This document shows, piece after piece, positions 1 to 11,403 of a DNA stretch of 64,000 nt. The translations under genes and the position numbers were made by a program. The first letter of the stretch is position 1; each line of letters begins with the position of its first letter. This stretch comes from a phage: sequence record PV805632.1. One strand, written 5' to 3'. The notes beneath the pieces were generated by a model. That model worked only from the letters and a program-made list of their open reading frames with translations, had not been told where the DNA came from and did not search any database.

Positions 1-10
1 CGGAGAAGAA

Positions 11-271
11 ATGAATATTCATAACCTACGTTTGGTTGAAAGACTGTATGAAGAATACAACGACAACCGACAGCAATTGGCTAGTCTAAAAAAGTCCCCG
101 CATATGGTGAAAGTAACCTTCTGTGATACAGATTTGGGGGTACAAGCTCGTGCAAGCATAATCCCTAAATTACTAGCATTTTATCAAAAGAAAGTGGATG
201 ACTTAGAGAAACGCCTGAAGCATTTAGGAGTTGATCTATCTTTATTACCTGAAGAAGAGGAAGAAGAGTGA
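11..271 (+). CDS. hypothetical early protein (acidic EEEEEE C-terminus)
   Basis: 86-aa ORF in track; 4-nt overlap with next ORF; no recognisable motif. Confidence 0.4.
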   Translation: MNIHNLRLVERLYEEYNDNRQQLASLKKSPHMVKVTFCDTDLGVQARASIIPKLLAFYQKKVDDLEKRLKHLGVDLSLLPEEEEEE

Positions 272-453
272 AACTTACTCAGTCCCAAGCAATTTTCCTT
301 CGCATGGTTCAAGGTGGTTCTGCCACCAGCAACCGTAATAACAAAACCGCACAGTCTCTTAAGAAGCTAGGCTTAGTACAGTTCAATGCTGGTCTTGGGT
401 GGTCATTAACCCCTACCGGTGTACTTCAACTCAACGAGTTAAAAGGTAACTAA
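268..453 (+). CDS. hypothetical small protein
   Basis: 61-aa ORF with GTG start, tightly packed between neighbours; no motif. Confidence 0.3.
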   Translation: MKLTQSQAIFLRMVQGGSATSNRNNKTAQSLKKLGLVQFNAGLGWSLTPTGVLQLNELKGN

Positions 454-780
454 ATGAAAACTTTAATTGCTGTTGTTCTAGTAGCTCTATCAGTTCTGTC
501 ATTCGGTGCTCAAGCATCCAGTCGTGCAACCTTGTTGGAAGCTGCTGCTGATTACAAAGCCAATGAGGGTAACTTTTTGAACCAGGGTTACTTCATGGGC
601 ATGGTTACCATGGCAGCAGAGGCAGGGGATAACTGTGTACCTGATGGTATAAAGTTAGGTCTCCTTTTTGACAAAGTGGCTTCTATTATTCTGTATGACC
701 GAAAGGTTAATGCAGTAAAAAAACCATCAGACATGATTCTGTTAGCGATAGATACAGCGTATCCATGCGTTAAATCTTAA
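454..780 (+). CDS. putative secreted small protein
   Basis: 108 aa; N-terminus MKTLIAVVLVALSVLSFGAQA looks like a Sec signal peptide with AQA cleavage motif. Confidence 0.5.
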   Translation: MKTLIAVVLVALSVLSFGAQASSRATLLEAAADYKANEGNFLNQGYFMGMVTMAAEAGDNCVPDGIKLGLLFDKVASIILYDRKVNAVKKPSDMILLAIDTAYPCVKS

Positions 781-814
781 TTAGTAATTCCATTAACTTT
801 AGGAGAGTAAGTAA

Positions 815-1867
815 ATGGCGAGCATTGACTCCTTGACTGTATGTAATACACGTCAAGCCCGTAACTTTATTATCCGTGCCTTGCAAGCAGGTAACGTACC
901 GTTCCTGACTTCATCACCGGGTATGGGTAAGTCTGCAATTATTCGTTCTATTGCAGAAGAATTTGGTATGAAGCTGATTGACCATCGTCTGTCTACTTCT
1001 GCCCCGGAAGACTTATCTGGTCTACCATTCCGTAATGGTGACCGTGCAGAGTTTATTCCATTTGCTGACTTATTCCCTATCGAGGGTGACGAAGTACCAG
1101 AAGGCTATAATGGCTGGCTCCTGTTCCTTGATGAGTTCAACTCAGCTAAAAAAGAAGTAGTAGCTGCTGCATACAAACTGATTCTAGACCGTATGACCGG
1201 GCAGAAAAAACTTCACCCTAATGTGATGATTATCTGTGCCGGTAATAAAGCTACTGACCGTGCTATCGTTAACCCACTGGGTACTGCAATGCAGTCTCGC
1301 GTTGTCCACTTCGAAATGGAACTTAACTTCGACATTTTTGTTGAAGACGTAATGATTCCTCAAGAATGGGATGAGCGTCTGGTTGCATTCTTACATGCTA
1401 ACCCTGGTTATCTGCACGACTTCGACCCTGCCCATAAGAACAAAACATTCTGTTGTCCACGTACCTGGGACTTTGTTAACAAAGACCTCAAGAACCGACC
1501 AGAAGGTGCTTTGCCTGATGAAGATTCTATCTACTATGCAGGCCACGTTACTGCTGGTAAGGCTACAGAGTTTGTTCAGTTCACTCAGGTATACAATCGT
1601 ATGATTACGATTGATAAGGTAGTCAAAGACCCTTTGGGCTGTGCACTACCAGAGGATAATAACCTGTGCTGGGCTACCGTTAACCACCTGGCTAACAAGA
1701 CCACTGAAGATAACTTCGTTGATGTACTTAAGTACATTGAACGCTTTAAAACGTTCACCCATAAGATTCTGTACTTCCGTACAGCAGGCAAAGCATTACC
1801 AGAAATTCAGGCTACCCCTGAATGGCGTAAAGCTGCTGCCAATATATCTCGTTACATTCACGGATAA
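815..1867 (+). CDS. AAA+ ATPase, MoxR-like
   Basis: Walker A SPGMGKSA, Walker B LLFLDEFN, sensor-1 ICAGN; AGGAGAG RBS upstream of ATG. Confidence 0.8.
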   Translation: MASIDSLTVCNTRQARNFIIRALQAGNVPFLTSSPGMGKSAIIRSIAEEFGMKLIDHRLSTSAPEDLSGLPFRNGDRAEFIPFADLFPIEGDEVPEGYNGWLLFLDEFNSAKKEVVAAAYKLILDRMTGQKKLHPNVMIICAGNKATDRAIVNPLGTAMQSRVVHFEMELNFDIFVEDVMIPQEWDERLVAFLHANPGYLHDFDPAHKNKTFCCPRTWDFVNKDLKNRPEGALPDEDSIYYAGHVTAGKATEFVQFTQVYNRMITIDKVVKDPLGCALPEDNNLCWATVNHLANKTTEDNFVDVLKYIERFKTFTHKILYFRTAGKALPEIQATPEWRKAAANISRYIHG

Positions 1868-1874
1868 TCACAAC

Positions 1875-3050
1875 ATGAACCAGATACCTCAGCACACACT
1901 TAGTGATGAACAACTCATGCGTGAGTATGACCGTATTCAGGCGCAGGCATTTCTTGGACGCAGTGCAGCGTTTTTTGGTTCATTGCTGTGTAGTCTTAAG
2001 TTCTCATGGAAACGTGAGGGCTGTCCCACTGCATGTACCGATGGGATAGAACTCCATTTCAACCCAGACTTCTTTATCTGGATGTGCCCTGATGCAAGAG
2101 AAACGGTGCTAATGCACGAACTCTGGCATGTGGCATACCTACATGGCATCCGTTGTGGAAGCCGTGACCCAGAAGTCTGGAACCAGGCATGTGACCACTT
2201 CATTAACCTTCAGTTAGAGGAAGATGGTTACAAGTTCACTGGTATCGACGAAGGCATTTGCAAAGACCCTCAATATAAAGGATGGGTCGAAGAAGACATC
2301 TACGATGACCTGATGAAGAACCCTCAGAAAAGGCAGAAGCCGTCAGGGGGTGCTGGAGCAGGTCTTGCTGGCGACATGAAAGCTCCCTCTTCGGGGCAGT
2401 CCCAGGGTGCTGTTGTCAACAACGTAGTACGTGCAATGCAAAGCCAGAAGATGGCTGGTGGAATGATGCCCGGTAAAGGTGCTGGTCGTATGGAAGAGGT
2501 TATTACCCAATTCCTTAAACCAGTGGTTCCTTGGCAGGAAGTCCTGCTGAACTTCTTTACCGACATTGATGGTACACACTATACGTGGGCCAGACCTAAC
2601 CGTCGTTTCACTGACGTCTATCTACCTTCTCTGGAAGATGATGAAGGACGCTTACGACACTTAGCCTACTTTGAGGATGTATCTGGTTCTATTAGTAGTG
2701 CTGACTCTCTGCGTTTTAACTCAGAGGTTGCCTACGTTAAGAGCCAGTTCAATCCTAAGAAGATGACCCTAATTACCTTCGACGATATTATCCAAGAAGA
2801 AATAGACATCACTGAAGAAGATACTTTTGAAGAGATTAAGATTACTGGTCGTGGTGGTACAAACCTTGAACCAGTGCGTGAATGGATCATTAAGAATAAG
2901 CCAACCGCTGCAATCATATTCTCCGATATGTATGTTCGTCCTATGGAAGAATTGCCATTTGATATCCCTATCATCTGGTGTGTTCTGAATAATCCTAATG
3001 CTACCGTACCTTTTGGGGAGGTAGTTCATATCCCTAAAGGAATGAAATAA
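1875..3050 (+). CDS. VWA-domain protein (MIDAS motif) with HExxH-like motif, partner of the MoxR-like ATPase
   Basis: MIDAS-like DVSGSIS, HELWH motif; ATG at 1875 chosen because the track start at 1641 overlaps the upstream gene; ATPase-VWA pairing is a known arrangement. Confidence 0.65.
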   Translation: MNQIPQHTLSDEQLMREYDRIQAQAFLGRSAAFFGSLLCSLKFSWKREGCPTACTDGIELHFNPDFFIWMCPDARETVLMHELWHVAYLHGIRCGSRDPEVWNQACDHFINLQLEEDGYKFTGIDEGICKDPQYKGWVEEDIYDDLMKNPQKRQKPSGGAGAGLAGDMKAPSSGQSQGAVVNNVVRAMQSQKMAGGMMPGKGAGRMEEVITQFLKPVVPWQEVLLNFFTDIDGTHYTWARPNRRFTDVYLPSLEDDEGRLRHLAYFEDVSGSISSADSLRFNSEVAYVKSQFNPKKMTLITFDDIIQEEIDITEEDTFEEIKITGRGGTNLEPVREWIIKNKPTAAIIFSDMYVRPMEELPFDIPIIWCVLNNPNATVPFGEVVHIPKGMK

Positions 3051-3556
3051 TGATTGTTAATGGTAATTCTCTATACCGTTCATCTCAATTGCTGGATGTC
3101 CCAGACCGTAAGGTATCCGAGCATGGTGTAAGCTATGGATTAGGCGAAGCTGGTTATGATATTCGTATCAAACAAGACATTACCTTCTATCGCTTATTTG
3201 GGTTAATTCCAATGGTGAAAATCGTTGATGGAAAACAAGTATCACGCCATCTCGGTAAATTCGCATTGGCTTCAGCAATTGAGAAATTCAACATGTCTCC
3301 GTCCTGTGTAGCTATCGTTCACGATAAGTCCACATGGGCAAGACGTGCATTATCTGTGTTCAATACCGTAATAGAACCAGGATGGAAAGGGTATCTTACC
3401 CTCGAACTGGTCTATCATGGTCGTAAGAAACTGCATATCCCGGCTGGTGCTGGGATAGCTCAAGTATTATTTCATCTGGTTCAAGAGCCTGCTAATTACA
3501 ACGGCAAGTATCAGAACCAGGAGGACAAACCAGTAGCTGCAAGAAGCAGTAAATAA
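3050..3556 (+). CDS. dcd: dCTP deaminase (dUTPase-superfamily fold)
   Basis: 168 aa; start overlaps upstream stop (TAATG); sequence resembles dCTP deaminase family from memory. Confidence 0.7.
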   Translation: MIVNGNSLYRSSQLLDVPDRKVSEHGVSYGLGEAGYDIRIKQDITFYRLFGLIPMVKIVDGKQVSRHLGKFALASAIEKFNMSPSCVAIVHDKSTWARRALSVFNTVIEPGWKGYLTLELVYHGRKKLHIPAGAGIAQVLFHLVQEPANYNGKYQNQEDKPVAARSSK

Positions 3557-3565
3557 GGAAACAAC

Positions 3566-3766
3566 ATGTCAGTATTTCAAGTAACTCCTGTTGACAGTAC
3601 CCAACGTAAAACTATTGTTGCAACTAACGTAGTAGATGTAGATGAAACTCCGGCTGGTGCTGTAGTTCATCTGATTGATGGGCGAACTGTAACTGTAAAA
3701 GAAAGCTATCGTTCAGTACGTGGTTACGTCCGTAAAGCTTTAACTGCTGACTCTGACGCAGAGTAA
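3566..3766 (+). CDS. hypothetical protein
   Basis: 66-aa ORF with GGAAACAAC-ATG context; followed by palindromic terminator. Confidence 0.45.
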   Translation: MSVFQVTPVDSTQRKTIVATNVVDVDETPAGAVVHLIDGRTVTVKESYRSVRGYVRKALTADSDAE

Positions 3767-3776
3767 GTAGCTGCCT

Positions 3777-3803
3777 AAATAGCCCAGCATAGCTGGGCTA
3801 TTT
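3777..3803. terminator. palindromic hairpin terminator (9-bp GC-rich stem, 3-nt loop, AAA/TTT flanks)
   Basis: TAGCCCAGC-ATA-GCTGGGCTA at 3780-3800 flanked by AAA and TTT. Confidence 0.5.
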
Positions 3804-3839
3804 GTGAAGAAACTAACTCAACCCCACATAGGAACCATC

Positions 3840-4100
3840 ATGGAATCTTTAGCAGCAATTCTCGTTCTGTTATTTGCACTTGCTATATACCTTATCCCTA
3901 CTATTATTGCTTTTGCACGAGGCCATGCCTCTAAGTGGGGCATTGGTGTACTCAATATCGTATTAGGCTGGTCTTTAGTCTTCTGGGTAGTAGCACTGAT
4001 TTGGTCACTGTCTAATAAAGGACAGTCTCAGACTACAATCGTTAACGTTGGTAGTGGTAACCAGTACAACGTGTCTCAAACGAGCCAGTCTGATAAGTAA
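3840..4100 (+). CDS. small two-TM membrane protein, superinfection-immunity (Imm)-like
   Basis: IYLIPTIIAFARGH...LNIVLGWSLVFWVVALIWSL resembles the Imm_superinfect family motif as I recall it; AGGA RBS 7 nt before ATG 3840; the GTG at 3804 lies inside the terminator. Confidence 0.5.
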   Translation: MESLAAILVLLFALAIYLIPTIIAFARGHASKWGIGVLNIVLGWSLVFWVVALIWSLSNKGQSQTTIVNVGSGNQYNVSQTSQSDK

Positions 4101-4174
4101 CTAACTTAAGCATCATTGTATAGTGGTGCTTGTGGAAGTTGCTTCCAGCTCATTACTTATCCATCTCCTAATCC

Positions 4175-4201
4175 AAGCCCACCTAACCCGTGGGCTTTTT
4201 T
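4175..4201 (+). terminator. rho-independent terminator
   Basis: AGCCCAC-CTAACCC-GTGGGCT followed by TTTTTT. Confidence 0.6.
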
Positions 4202-4222
4202 AATTACAGGTAGTAAATACTA

Positions 4223-4666
4223 ATGCGTATCCCATTCCTAAGAAAAAGGGAACGAAATCCTGTTCTTTATAATAAAGGCATAGAGGATGAGTACGAACTC
4301 AACCGTAAAGCTCGTTCCTACGCAACAAAATTATTCATGGGGACTAGCAACCCTAATAGATTACTGGACTTTGTTTTCGAACAAGTCTTTATCATATACA
4401 GCTTAGCTATGTCTGCTGGTTCACAAGAAGTAAGTGATAAGGCAAGATATGCTCTCTGTATGCTCCGGAAAGAGTACGAAGCCATCCTGTATGAAGACTT
4501 GTACTCCTTTAAGAAAGAAACCGCTGTAGCGTGTTCTGTGGCTCTTACTGAAGGTATAGCAGTATTACAAGAACTGCCCCGTAGTGAGTTTAAACTGGTA
4601 TATGTCCAGGCCAGGAGAATTACAGAAAACCGTAGTGGTATTACCAACTATCTAAGGTCATTCTAA
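4223..4666 (+). CDS. hypothetical protein
   Basis: 147-aa ORF; stop overlaps thyX start (TAATG). Confidence 0.5.
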   Translation: MRIPFLRKRERNPVLYNKGIEDEYELNRKARSYATKLFMGTSNPNRLLDFVFEQVFIIYSLAMSAGSQEVSDKARYALCMLRKEYEAILYEDLYSFKKETAVACSVALTEGIAVLQELPRSEFKLVYVQARRITENRSGITNYLRSF

Positions 4667-9358: not shown

Positions 9359-10462
9359 ATGAAAATCGAACTGATTTCTATCATCGCACTGGCAGTTGAC
9401 AGTCGAAACCTCACACTGTGGAAGCCTGATGGCTCCACGGTTGTATACCCTCAGAGCGACCCACGGGTTGCTCGTATTGTATCTGAAGCACAGACTAAAG
9501 GTCTGGGCACTACCCAGGATCAAATAGAAGTAAACATTGCACCAGAAGTAGAACTTCGTACTGAATACCTGGAAGCAGAGAAGAACACCAACGGATTCGT
9601 TCGTTTCTTTAAGGTAGCTAAAGCTAAACTCAAAGAGTTCTTCGAAGATGGTACAGGTGTTTCACCAGCCCGTACCGTTTCAGATATTAAGCTGGGTAAT
9701 CCTACTAAGACACTAGTGTCTAAAGCTATGGATACTTTTCTGGCTGTCCAGGCTAATGAACCAGAAGTAACGGTAGCAGATGGTTACTACGACAAACGTG
9801 ACAATCTGATGTGGGTTACCGGTTGGGATAAAGACCATAACCATCTTGCACTGGTTCGTTTTATTGACTACGTACTTTGTTGGAGTCATAAGCATACTGA
9901 TCATATTCTTGCACAGGAGTGGCCTATTGCAATTCGTGCAGTATCTGATGATGAAATGGGTGAGTTTGCTAAACAAGCCCAATACATCAAAGGTGTACAC
10001 ATTGTATTTACCAACCGTGGAGAAACACCACTGCCTTACGTGGAAGTAGCTAAAACCTCGAACCAGGATAAGCTGGCTGCTGCTTCAGAGAAACTGGCTG
10101 CATTAGGTGCTATCAGTACTGATGACACTAACTTCCATACTGATGTGAAGGAAGATGAAGTGGTTGTTGCTGTTACCAACAATGGGGTTATCCCTGGGGT
10201 TGAGAACCTGCAACGCCACCTGCGTCAGTCTGCCAAGCTGAAAGACTATAAGGGCTTTACTAAGTTCCTTGAGCGTCTGGCTCCGGTTATTAAAGACCGT
10301 CTGCACTCAGTGGAAGACCTGATGAAGTTCATGGAAACTGCTGAACTGCCTATCGCTGATGATGGCTCTATCCTGTTCCTGAAACGACTTAAGTTCAGAG
10401 GTGAAGAAATGGTAAGCGTGTATTCGTTGACTGTCACTCAGGCAACATTCGTCAGTGGGTAG
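9359..10462 (+). CDS. rIIB: rIIB-like protein, N-terminal segment (possibly a frameshifted single gene with 10543..11403)
   Basis: 367-aa ORF immediately after rIIA; the next frame is open from 10405 and the two ORFs together give about 680 aa; assignment by position and size only. Confidence 0.45.
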   Translation: MKIELISIIALAVDSRNLTLWKPDGSTVVYPQSDPRVARIVSEAQTKGLGTTQDQIEVNIAPEVELRTEYLEAEKNTNGFVRFFKVAKAKLKEFFEDGTGVSPARTVSDIKLGNPTKTLVSKAMDTFLAVQANEPEVTVADGYYDKRDNLMWVTGWDKDHNHLALVRFIDYVLCWSHKHTDHILAQEWPIAIRAVSDDEMGEFAKQAQYIKGVHIVFTNRGETPLPYVEVAKTSNQDKLAAASEKLAALGAISTDDTNFHTDVKEDEVVVAVTNNGVIPGVENLQRHLRQSAKLKDYKGFTKFLERLAPVIKDRLHSVEDLMKFMETAELPIADDGSILFLKRLKFRGEEMVSVYSLTVTQATFVSG

Positions 10463-10542: not shown

Positions 10543-11403
10543 ATGAGCTATATCCGTACCTTCGGTGGTAACGTAACTATCCTTGGTAAAGTAGCACCAG
10601 AAGATGTATTTGCTGTTCCTGAGTACAACACTAATAAGATGCGTGTAGCTGCGTATCACATTATTGCTGAACTACCAGAAGAGGAACGTTGCAACGTTAA
10701 CAATGGTATCTATCTGTCTAATACAGAAGTGGGTAAGAAGTTACTTAATGATGCCATCGTTGGGAACCATAGTTCACCTACCACACTTGTTATGGTTGGT
10801 GGGCATCGTGGTACTAACCTCAAATACACCAATCTATCGTCTGGTTCTGTAGAACAATTCCGTACAGTTGCTAATAAAGAGGCACTGAATATGGAAGAGT
10901 CACTGAATGAAGCTGTAGCTGCTGAACCAGTGAAGGCTACTGACCTTAAACCTATTGTTAATAAGGCTCCTACCGTGAAAGAACAAATCCAGGAACTGAT
11001 TAAAGAGTTCCTTAACGCTGCTACTCCAGAAGATAAATTAGCTGCTGCTGATTTACTTGTGGAAATGCGAGGTAAGGCTCGTAAGCCATGGGCTGCTTTA
11101 GGTGTTGGTTCCGATGTGGTATCTAAGATTGCTGATGTACGTAGTACTCGCATTCCTGCACCAAAAGCGAAACCAGTGAAGAAAACTAAGGTTCACCGTT
11201 CGGCTACTGCTACTAAGGTAGCACCGTCTGGTAAACACGCTGATAATCTGCGTAGCATCCTGAATGATACGTCCTACTCTGACTATCAGAAAGGTCATGC
11301 TCTGCAAGACTATAAGCGTCATGCTAAGAAGTCATTCACTGCAATGGGTCTGACTGAAGAAGAAGCTAAGTTAGCTACCAAGCTGGTCAAGGCCGTTAAG
11401 TAA
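10543..11403 (+). CDS. rIIB-like protein, C-terminal segment (frame open upstream to 10405, no RBS at ATG 10543)
   Basis: 286-aa ORF; its frame continues 46 codons upstream and overlaps the end of 9359..10462. Confidence 0.4.
   Translation: MSYIRTFGGNVTILGKVAPEDVFAVPEYNTNKMRVAAYHIIAELPEEERCNVNNGIYLSNTEVGKKLLNDAIVGNHSSPTTLVMVGGHRGTNLKYTNLSSGSVEQFRTVANKEALNMEESLNEAVAAEPVKATDLKPIVNKAPTVKEQIQELIKEFLNAATPEDKLAAADLLVEMRGKARKPWAALGVGSDVVSKIADVRSTRIPAPKAKPVKKTKVHRSATATKVAPSGKHADNLRSILNDTSYSDYQKGHALQDYKRHAKKSFTAMGLTEEEAKLATKLVKAVK

Follow-up and report, generated by a model that had tools for sequence, protein, structure and literature searches.

What do an ATPase and a putative metallopeptidase with a VWA domain, encoded side by side in a phage genome, do together during infection? 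The question is raised by two adjacent genes in the stretch of PV805632.1 analyzed here (64,000 nt, the window), which belongs to a G7C-like (Gamaleyavirus) N4-like coliphage. A sequence-only reading of the window had pointed out the pair and had called the role of ATPase-VWA pairs in phage infection not well defined. That assessment agrees with the searchable literature, in which no functional study of DUF2201, of N4 gp24/gp25 or of phage MoxR-VWA-metalloprotease pairs was found. The pair itself is already known: Iyer et al. 2021 reported its architecture from jumbo phages, and in RefSeq close relatives are labeled ATPase and VWA-like protein. As a genome-scan result, the locus re-identifies a gene pair that has been annotated and discussed before.

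Identity and genomic setting of the gene pair

The two genes are present as the earlier reading described them, with Pfam and PHROG E-values far beyond chance. The first (815..1867, plus strand, as are all features below) encodes 350 aa and carries AGGAGAG 5' of its ATG, and the second (1875..3050) encodes 391 aa counted from the ATG at 1875. The mechanical ORF of the second gene extends upstream to a GTG at 1641; ATG 1875 was taken as the start because homologues begin with MNQI, and the intergenic gap is 7 nt. Both products gave full-length matches to PHROG profiles (phrog_1297, E = 9e-134, and phrog_1314, E = 2e-143, respectively). The region is 93-96% identical at the nucleotide level to G7C-like phages (56 records), shares with G7C the gene order gp17.x-gp24-gp25-dcd, and corresponds to two G7C genes that are annotated by their similarity to N4 gp24 and N4 gp25, respectively. 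The two genes are orthologues of N4 gp24 and gp25, and are referred to by these names hereafter.

Both belong to the 14 core genes of N4-like phages, among which gp24 is listed as 'unknown' and gp25 as 'vWFA domain', and their transcripts in N4 are of the middle class (PMC4193335). The 'early region' in which the sequence-only reading had placed them is imprecise for this reason, and 'middle region' is the better term. In the window the pair shares its arm with genes for dCTP deaminase, ThyX and rII, and the late structural genes are on the opposite strand. The gene immediately downstream (3050..3556) encodes a dCTP deaminase (Pfam DCD), the orthologue of N4 gp26, whose start overlaps the gp25 stop in TAATG; it is part of the gp24/gp25 transcription unit and lies outside the two-gene module. 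Its adjacency is absent in Pseudomonas N4-like phages, where the neighbor is a helicase gene. Scanning 1..4300 for promoters and terminators with a tool that has no model of N4 middle promoters returned counts equal to those in shuffled sequence. The sole convincing terminator in that scan lies at 4175..4197, 3' of an imm-like gene.

Motifs, profiles and predicted folds of the two proteins

The gp24 product consists of an AAA+ module (approximately residues 1-200) followed by an all-helical C-terminal region that extends to residue 350. The module carries the complete AAA+ motif set, judged from sequence conservation. The Walker A/P-loop S34-P-G-M-G-K-S40 (914..934) retains G38, K39 and S40 in 54/54 phage and 59-60/61 cellular homologues, D106 and E107 of the Walker B motif L102-L-F-L-D106-E107 (1118..1135) are invariant, and the sensor 1 residue N144 (1244..1246) is found in 115/115 homologues. 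Two arginines are equally invariant (115/115 each): R162 (1298..1300), whose position makes it a candidate arginine finger, and R216 (1460..1462) in a C-P-R-T-W motif. The S-P-R motif is a feature of the lids of MoxR ATPases and chelatases, and likeness to it suggests R216 as a candidate sensor 2. As a set, these elements are kept in each of the 54 phage homologues and in 60-61/61 cellular homologues. Residues 59-99 (989..1111), which separate strand 2 from Walker B, contain an invariant P64-x-D66-x-x-G69-x-P71 and short strands, modeled at a pLDDT of only 56-75; this segment may represent the helix-2 insert, a clade 7 feature of the MoxR class.

Profile searches place gp24 among AAA+ proteins, with Pfam AAA (28.3 bits, cut-off 21.2) as the sole AAA threshold passed. 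AAA_5 stays below threshold for gp24 itself (18.2 bits, cut-off 22) and the AAA_3 search gave no match, whereas cellular and jumbo-phage homologues pass AAA_5 (24-30 bits) and reach 21-26.4 bits for AAA_3/bpMoxR, just under 27. The AF2 model (mean pLDDT 88.5) retrieved 443 PDB matches at E ≤ 1e-3 with Foldseek, the best 50 of which are all AAA+ proteins. NorQ occupies ranks 1, 2 and 5 (E = 6e-7 to 1.4e-6), and superposition on CbbQ (6l1q, 5c3c) gave target-normalized TM scores of 0.60-0.64 at an rmsd of 5.2-5.7 Å. NtrX, clamp loader, dynein, RuvB and midasin AAA folds trail NorQ/CbbQ, the first four of them within one order of magnitude. At the sequence level, the only significant PDB matches are midasin AAA domains (E = 4e-5). 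The model and the motifs thus support gp24 as a MoxR-class AAA+ ATPase with a predicted fold nearest to NorQ/CbbQ and other AAA+ folds close behind, and the earlier assignment of a MoxR-type ATPase with Walker A/B and sensor 1 stands.

The gp25 product (1875..3050; AF2 mean pLDDT 79.7) combines a zincin-like domain, a linker and a compact VWA/MIDAS domain. Residues 17-253 match Pfam DUF2201_N, a putative metallopeptidase family (186.5 bits, E = 1e-54), and within this match the HExxH-like HELWH that had been noticed before maps to residues 81-85. The stretch H81-E-L-W-H85 ... H90 (2115..2144) lies on a predicted helix (residues 72-87) which follows strands 42-45, 53-55 and 59-62 and precedes a second helix (residues 99-116) bearing D107 in an A-C-D motif (2193..2195). 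Among 129 phage and cellular homologues, H81, H85 and D107 are invariant (129/129), while E82 is kept in 123/129 and H90 in 126/129; D107 is a candidate third zinc ligand, H90 being the other candidate. The catalytic Glu is missing in 6/75 cellular homologues, and catalysis is therefore not a property of every family member.

Secondary profile matches of DUF2201_N are weak and fall exclusively on zincin families (Peptidase_M48, SprT-like, M78, PhageMetallopep, M13 and astacin). Peptidase_M48 matched weakly in 5 of the 20 members tested (best E = 0.0015), and the PDB M48 entry 3c37 aligned, again weakly (E = 0.4), over the strand and the HExxH helix. The whole-model fold search of gp25 recovered VWA matches only and no solved zincin structure for the N-terminal domain, because the VWA matches dominated it. 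A single-sequence search of the PDB with gp25 gave no match at E ≤ 1, and its profile gave only marginal matches to integrin I domains (E ≥ 0.17). Conservation and profiles support the N-terminal domain as zincin-like and as a putative metallopeptidase. An alternative label, 'HNH endonuclease', is attached to phrog_1314 and to many GenBank records; we rejected it, as Pfam finds DUF2201_N and DUF2201 only. It has most likely spread from the HNH homing endonucleases inserted beside gp24/gp25 genes.

The two gp25 domains are joined by the linker W238-x-R-P-N-R-R244 (2586..2606), in which R243 and R244 are kept in 129/129 and W238 and P241 in 128/129 homologues. Residues 232-252, which include the linker, are modeled at a pLDDT below 50. 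The linker is probably flexible and may bind a partner or the pore, or be the place of a cleavage.

The C-terminal domain is supported, on sequence and model, as a VWA domain whose MIDAS site is complete and predicted to bind metal. Pfam DUF2201 (VWA-like) covers residues 263-386 (119.3 bits, E = 1.4e-34), so that profile searching does recover the VWA/MIDAS fold from 1875..3050, and relatives of gp25 also touch Pfam VWA, VWA_2 and VWA_CoxE. The MIDAS sequence DVSGSIS reported earlier occupies residues 268-274, after a predicted strand (residues 263-268), and D268, S270 and S272 of its D268-V-S-G-S272 core (2676..2690) are invariant (129/129), as are the MIDAS threonine T329 in G-G-T (2859..2861) and the MIDAS aspartate D351 in F-S-D (2925..2927). 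Foldseek matched the domain at probability 1.0 to the CLCA1 VWA domain (the best match, E = 5e-4), the ArnB-paralogue VWA2 (5a8j, rmsd 3.3 Å over 128 columns), integrin I domains, the MDN1 MIDAS domain and BatB. At about 128 residues the domain is very compact, which accounts for the modest E-values of these matches (5e-4 to 1e-2), and its predicted secondary structure shows no evident NorD-like 'finger'.

Association of the two genes and possible modes of action

Pairing of the two genes extends well beyond N4-like phages. A gp24-like ATPase gene lies upstream of the gp25 homologue on the same strand in approximately 70 of 80 cellular loci, which are bacterial and mobile-element-like; in Asteriusvirus jumbo phages the two genes are next to each other, and in Wroclawvirus they are nearby. 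Neighbors in the cellular loci include DNA ligase (WGR-ligase), DUF4942 methyltransferase, integrase and Gp157 genes, and virion genes are absent from the 5 kb on either side. The cellular modules have a third gene, which found no match in Pfam or PHROGs, and a profile of it found nothing in the window. Because the genes co-occur in other phage groups and in most of these bacterial loci, gp24 and gp25 very probably work together.

Taking NorQ/NorD, CbbQ/CbbO and midasin as analogues, we consider it probable that gp24 and gp25 form a two-gene machine, an ATPase with a peptidase-VWA protein, that remodels or cleaves a protein captured by the MIDAS site. Starting from the gene identities, motifs, folds and conserved pairing, we infer a course of events that would run from assembly of the complex and docking on the ring to capture of a substrate and proteolysis. 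The gp24 product would most likely assemble as a hexameric ring, on which gp25, as its dedicated partner, would dock via the VWA domain and/or the linker. An acidic residue of a protein substrate would be captured by the MIDAS metal, ATP hydrolysis by gp24 would pull or twist gp25 and thereby remodel the bound substrate, and the HExxH domain might then cut either the substrate or gp25 itself. The two genes lie in the middle-class arm, alongside nucleotide-metabolism genes. The dCTP deaminase and ThyX were considered as clients; this idea is weakened because that neighborhood is not conserved, either in Pseudomonas N4-like phages or in the cellular loci.

A more specific form of this proposal is speculative and rather unlikely. 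In it, gp24-gp25 would be an ATP-gated, MIDAS-targeted site-specific protease, and a novel type of AAA+ protease, in which the VWA domain is the adaptor bridging motor and zincin, and the linker serves as a pore-engaged handle or an autoprocessing switch. The substrate would act at a step common to N4-like phages, rV5-like phages, several jumbo phages and a class of integrative elements, and might be, for example, a maturing replication or transcription factor or a maturing protein that is to enter the virion.

A role in the virion, with the pair acting as an assembly chaperone and processing protease that folds, assembles and trims structural proteins, is possible, though on the unlikely side. 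Iyer et al. [quoted passage not shown] The Asteriusvirus pair is flanked by structural genes, and virion-protein genes lie near the gp24/gp25 homologues of roseophage RPP1 (Chan et al., PMC4193335). Here and in N4, however, the pair resides in the middle-class arm on the strand opposite to the late structural genes, and the neighborhoods of the cellular homologues described above are free of virion genes. Virion mass spectrometry of phAPEC6 points both ways: its MoxR ATPase gp265c was detected with 6 peptides, but gp264c, the gp25 homologue, is not in the virion list, and this list also holds thymidylate synthase and therefore includes non-structural carry-over.

Doubtful, too, is a protease for host take-over or counter-defense, by which the module would destroy or disable a host defense or stress protein soon after entry of the phage or mobile element. 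Expression of gp24/gp25 ahead of the late genes would suit it, as would the mobile-element-like company of the homologous modules (DUF4942 methyltransferase, WGR-ligase, integrase) and the size of the family, which comprises approximately 21,700 clusters of gp25 relatives at 50% identity in public data and is scattered over unrelated virulent phages. Unlike fast-evolving anti-defense genes, though, gp24 and gp25 belong to the universal core of N4-like phages irrespective of host, keeping approximately 50% identity across these hosts with invariant sites. Searches of both proteins against NCBIfam and PADLOC gave nothing meaningful; the absent PADLOC match counts for little, because the PADLOC models describe defense and not anti-defense.

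The nearest fold matches of gp24, NorQ and CbbQ, are metal-insertion or activase motors, and NorQD acts through an inter-domain linker, while gp25 has an invariant linker. These likenesses could also indicate a chaperone that inserts a metal cofactor into, or activates, a phage or host enzyme without proteolysis, in the manner of NorQD, CobST/ChlID and CbbQO, with HExxH as a metal-binding or delivery site; dCTP deaminase and ThyX genes adjoining the pair here, and thymidylate synthase close by in Asteriusvirus, would fit such a role. We nevertheless judge it distinctly improbable: the catalytic Glu, dispensable for a site that only binds metal, is retained at the high frequency given above (123/129), and the nucleotide-enzyme neighborhood is conserved neither in Pseudomonas N4-like phages nor in cellular loci. 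That gp24 and gp25 are mere neighbors with independent functions, as the Vequintavirinae might suggest by carrying the ATPase and DUF2201 genes approximately 4-5 kb apart on opposite strands, is very improbable given the same-strand adjacency in cellular loci and several unrelated phage groups, the 7-nt gap here and AAA+/VWA pairing as an established rule for MoxR ATPases (PMC9976466).

The remodeling or cleaving machine thus remains our preferred reading. As gp24 and gp25 are among the few genes common to all N4-like phages, finding their substrate would account for a core step in how N4-like phages develop, and it could also define a motor-adaptor-protease arrangement new to biochemistry.

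Comparison with known systems

The resemblance to midasin (Rea1/MDN1) involves both proteins, its AAA domains matching the gp24 sequence and its MIDAS domain being among the gp25 fold matches. Midasin differs in carrying its six AAA modules and tethered MIDAS domain on one giant polypeptide chain, and it has no peptidase domain. An N-terminal HExxH protease domain is also found together with a VWA domain in CLCA proteins, which are self-cleaving. CLCA1 is secreted, eukaryotic and without an AAA+ partner; beyond the VWA fold match, its likeness to gp25 would lie in the domain order and is an analogy only.

The p618 (MoxR) and p892 (VWA) proteins of ATV provide a viral precedent, for which interaction and ATPase stimulation have been shown experimentally (PMC4124505). 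ORF892 is a structural match of gp25 (rank 42) that is distant and at the level of fold only; p892 comprises 892 aa with no peptidase domain described, p618 is a virion component, and the virus is archaeal.

The mechanistic template is NorQD, which works through the linker joining the N-terminal and VWA domains (PMC9976466, PMC13036017). NorQ/NorD, CbbQ/CbbO and RavA/ViaA resemble gp24/gp25 in that the partner has an N-terminal domain, a flexible linker and a C-terminal MIDAS VWA domain. They differ in that gp24 has an additional C-terminal helical region of roughly 100 residues compared with NorQ, CbbQ and RavA. The VWA domain of NorD has approximately 300 residues, more than twice the length of that of gp25, where the pore 'finger' is not evident. 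The N-terminal domain of gp25 is zincin-like, whereas those of NorD, CbbO and ViaA have not been reported as such.

Closer still are the MoxR and metallopeptidase-vWA pairs that Iyer et al. 2021 (PMC7824862, Viruses 13:63) described in jumbo phages of group 2.2, which agree with gp24/gp25 in two-gene architecture and in Pfam domains. In Asteriusvirus Ecwhy_1 and in phAPEC6, an ATPase 29% identical to gp24 (E = 2e-23) is encoded adjacent to a DUF2201_N/DUF2201 protein. At 442 and 469 aa, the proteins of these jumbo phages exceed gp24 and gp25 in length, and structural genes flank them, whereas the pair of PV805632.1 lies in the middle/replication arm. The closest counterparts are gp24 and gp25 of N4 and G7C, core genes of the Schitoviridae. 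G7C carries an HNH homing endonuclease gene between gp24 and gp25, and in phage U1G an intron-borne HNH gene splits gp24; PV805632.1 has neither insertion. With orthologous genes in the same order, nothing essential distinguishes its module from those of N4 and G7C.

The gp24/gp25 gene pair and its surroundings

The phage is a G7C-like member of the N4-like phages (Gamaleyavirus, Schitoviridae). The 2.2-kb gp24/gp25 region displays 93-96% identity with 56 G7C-like genomes, and an N4 layout was recognized elsewhere in the window, including rIIA and a 3,759-aa virion RNA polymerase ORF on the opposite strand. The two co-directional ORFs, 815..1867 (+ strand, 350 aa, AGGAGAG ahead of the ATG) and 1875..3050 (+ strand, 391 aa from ATG 1875), are separated by 7 nt and are the orthologues of N4 gp24 and gp25, respectively. 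Mechanically, the gp25 ORF reaches back to GTG 1641; all homologues start at MNQI (ATG 1875), and the gp25 stop codon shares nucleotides with the start codon of the gene that follows (TAATG). The G7C record has the order gp24, gp25 and then gp26 dCTP deaminase, and annotates the first two as 'ATPase; similar to N4 gp24' and 'VWA-like domain-containing protein; similar to N4 gp25'. The sequence-only reading had placed the pair in the early region, which should read middle region, N4-like gp24/gp25 being middle-class genes (PMC4193335).

The recognition of these genes as a MoxR-type ATPase with a VWA/MIDAS partner is correct and already known, since by 2009 annotations already gave N4 gp24 as an AAA ATPase and gp25 as a vWFA protein (PMC2784036), a 2014 list of core genes includes both (PMC4193335), close relatives carry the RefSeq names 'ATPase' and 'VWA-like domain-containing protein', and the fusion of metallopeptidase and vWA domains alongside a MoxR ATPase was explicitly described in 2021 (PMC7824862).

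Immediately upstream of gp24 lies the orthologue of G7C gp17.3 (454..780, 108 aa), with a hydrophobic, signal-peptide-like N-terminus and a sub-threshold Pfam match to Rap1a type VI secretion immunity (E = 8e-4, 20.3 bits vs a cut-off of 27.7). Downstream, 3804..4100 is orthologous to G7C gp27.1, which in that genome is annotated as resembling the T4-type Imm superinfection-immunity membrane protein. It is followed by a hairpin (4175..4197), the only strong intrinsic-terminator-like one in the first 4.3 kb, which is probably the end of the transcription unit containing gp24/gp25. Further along, the rIIB-like gene is split into ORFs 9359..10462 and 10543..11403 by a 1-nt deletion, relative to G7C gp34, in an A-run around 10406, the deletion being either a real frameshift mutation or a sequencing error in the homopolymer.

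Folds and conserved motifs of gp24 and gp25

Against Pfam, gp24 passed the threshold for the generic AAA family alone (28.3 bits), AAA_5 scoring 18.2 under a cut-off of 22; phrog_1297 ('ATPase') matched it end to end. Walker A (G38-K39-S40), Walker B (D106-E107), sensor 1 (N144), R162 and R216 were invariant or nearly so both among 55 aligned N4-like homologues (~50% identity) and after addition of 61 cellular homologues, and a P64-x-D66-x-x-G69-x-P71 motif is conserved between strand 2 and Walker B. In the PDB, the gp24 sequence matched midasin AAA domains alone (E = 4e-5 for the single-sequence search, 2e-3 for the profile search). The AlphaFold2 model (mean pLDDT 88.5) gave NorQ (E = 6e-7) and CbbQ (TM 0.60-0.64 normalised to target) as best PDB fold matches, with dynein and midasin modules, NtrX, clamp loader and RuvB close behind. 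Distant homologues from bacterial loci and jumbo phages passed AAA_5 and nearly reached AAA_3 and bpMoxR. Although the window sequence by itself falls below the curated MoxR profile of Pfam, we accept gp24 as a MoxR-class AAA+ ATPase because of its fold and the support from the wider family.

Two Pfam domains account for gp25: DUF2201_N, 'putative metallopeptidase domain' (residues 17-253, 186.5 bits), and DUF2201, 'VWA-like domain' (residues 263-386, 119.3 bits). In the set of 129 homologues (25-98% identity), no change was seen at the five MIDAS residues (D268, S270, S272, T329 and D351), at H81 or H85 of HExxH, at R93 or at D107, while E82 is kept in 123 and H90 in 126. The gp25 model (mean pLDDT 79.7) has a compact, VWA-like C-terminal domain, and it matched the solved VWA domains of CLCA1, the ArnB-paralogue VWA2, integrin I domains, MDN1 MIDAS and BatB with probability 1.0. 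Together with DUF2201 and the invariant MIDAS residues, these matches bear out the VWA/MIDAS assignment; a VWA fold, whose absence from 1875..3050 had been named as the refutation, is therefore present.

VWA matches filled the gp25 fold search list, and as a substitute check on the metallopeptidase fold the N-terminal domains of 20 diverse family members were compared with Pfam at a permissive threshold. Besides DUF2201_N, the recurring or best-E matches were zincins: Peptidase_M48 in 5 of the 20 (best E = 0.0015), and further SprT-like, M78, PhageMetallopep, M13, astacin and the eCIS core domain. Unrelated families were matched by single members in a few cases (E 0.06-1.1), which resembled noise. 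A PDB profile search aligned M48 peptidase 3c37 over the strand and HExxH helix (E = 0.4), and the model places three short strands before a long HExxH helix and a D107 helix, the usual zincin order. These weak profile matches and the predicted order support a zincin-like N-terminal domain, and do not in themselves prove catalysis. Between the domains, the linker W238-x-R-P-N-R-R244 (window 2586..2606) is invariant or nearly so in the 129 homologues and lies within residues 232-252, modelled at very low confidence (pLDDT below 50). Such a combination is typical of segments that gain order only upon binding, and possible roles of the linker are those of a pore handle, a pseudo-substrate or a site of cleavage.

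The 'HNH endonuclease' label of phrog_1314, the gp25 family, which is repeated in many GenBank/RefSeq N4-like records, was rejected, the domains being DUF2201_N and DUF2201 only. The most likely source of the name is the HNH homing endonucleases that have inserted next to these genes. In close relatives the locus is a homing-endonuclease hot spot: G7C has an HNH gene (L001 10917..11393) exactly in the gp24-gp25 gap (window junction 1868..1874), and in U1G an HNH gene annotated 'phage intron' (L082 732..1301) splits gp24 into two CDSs, gp25 also being annotated as two CDSs. No insertion of either type was found at gp24/gp25 in the window.

Pairing across bacteria and phages

A survey of one genome per species yielded 80 loci with a gp25 relative; in about 70, a gp24-like ATPase gene precedes it on the same strand. 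A third gene of ~300 aa stands beside or between the pair in 52 of 79 loci (among L012-L078, for example L038 4048..5007 and L054 2640..3515); its product begins with MITERAMLAAVH... and includes AGRYNK, Pfam and PHROG searches matched nothing to it, and the window encodes no equivalent. Neighbours include a DUF4942 methyltransferase, WGR with an ATP-dependent ligase, Sipho_Gp157, DUF6927 and integrase, and no virion genes were found within 5 kb; these contexts are mobile-element-like.

Among sequenced phages, 668 records hold gp25 relatives and 807 hold gp24 relatives, with host genera and phage groups largely shared. The two genes are adjacent in Asteriusvirus jumbo phages, a few genes apart in Wroclawvirus, and several kb apart on opposite strands in Vequintavirinae. 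By structure, the whole gp25 model also has relatives in cyanophage S-TIM5, Bacillus phage PBS1, a crAss-like virus and Lactococcus phage KSY1 and, more distantly, in ORF892, a VWA protein from Acidianus two-tailed virus. A gp25 profile recovered 21,674 relatives (E <= 1e-3) from 1.84 billion cluster representatives. The co-occurrence in cells and phages marks the pairing as ancient and widespread. It agrees with the usual association of MoxR ATPases with a VWA partner (PMC9976466) and is good evidence that gp24 and gp25 act jointly.

In two large bacterial contigs, one from a Roseococcus MAG (L003, 296 kb) and one from a Mesorhizobium yinganensis isolate (L004, 727 kb), gp24, gp25, dCTP deaminase and ThyX lie in N4-like order, their proteins sharing about 35-59% amino-acid identity with those of the window. 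These could be integrated or persisting N4-like elements, or assembly or binning artefacts.

Role in infection and comparison with NorQD

Three roles compete as sub-hypotheses, and we place confidence in none. Virion assembly and processing by the pair has been proposed for the jumbo-phage architecture by Iyer et al., with an analogy to ATV p618/p892 (PMC7824862, PMC4124505), and would agree with the structural genes flanking the Asteriusvirus pair and with mass-spectrometric detection of the ATPase gp265c (L086 1026..2351) in phAPEC6 virions. However, the phAPEC6 virion list lacks the gp25 homologue gp264c and includes thymidylate synthase, suggesting carry-over of non-structural proteins; moreover, N4-like gp24/gp25 are middle-class genes among nucleotide-metabolism genes, and the cellular relatives are away from virion genes. 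Host take-over or counter-defence would fit the mobile-element contexts of the cellular loci, but poorly suits universal, slowly evolving core genes. Cofactor insertion would fit the resemblance of gp24 to NorQ/CbbQ but leaves the conserved catalytic Glu unexplained. A literature search found no experimental work on the combination of MoxR ATPase and metallopeptidase-vWA protein, and the interest that remains is in so widespread a core phage module.

Beyond the identity, motifs, folds and pairing documented above, we infer the following mechanism by analogy: gp24 would form a ring on which gp25 docks, the MIDAS metal of gp25 would hold a protein substrate by an acidic residue, and an ATP-driven pull on gp25 would remodel the substrate and feed it to the HExxH site to be cleaved; alternatively, the pull might trigger self-cleavage of gp25. 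The unusually small gp25 VWA domain, with no obvious pore 'finger', and the few cellular members devoid of the catalytic Glu sit less comfortably with this scheme. In NorQ/NorD, one VWA protein is seated on the NorQ hexamer, the NorD MIDAS is required for action on the target enzyme and dispensable for motor binding, and ATP hydrolysis remodels the linker joining the N-terminal and VWA domains of NorD (PMC9976466, PMC13036017). The parts of gp25 follow the order of those in NorD: the N-terminal domain comes first, a conserved, flexible linker next, and the VWA domain with its MIDAS site lies at the C-terminus. A NorQD-style mechanism is therefore proposed for gp24/gp25.
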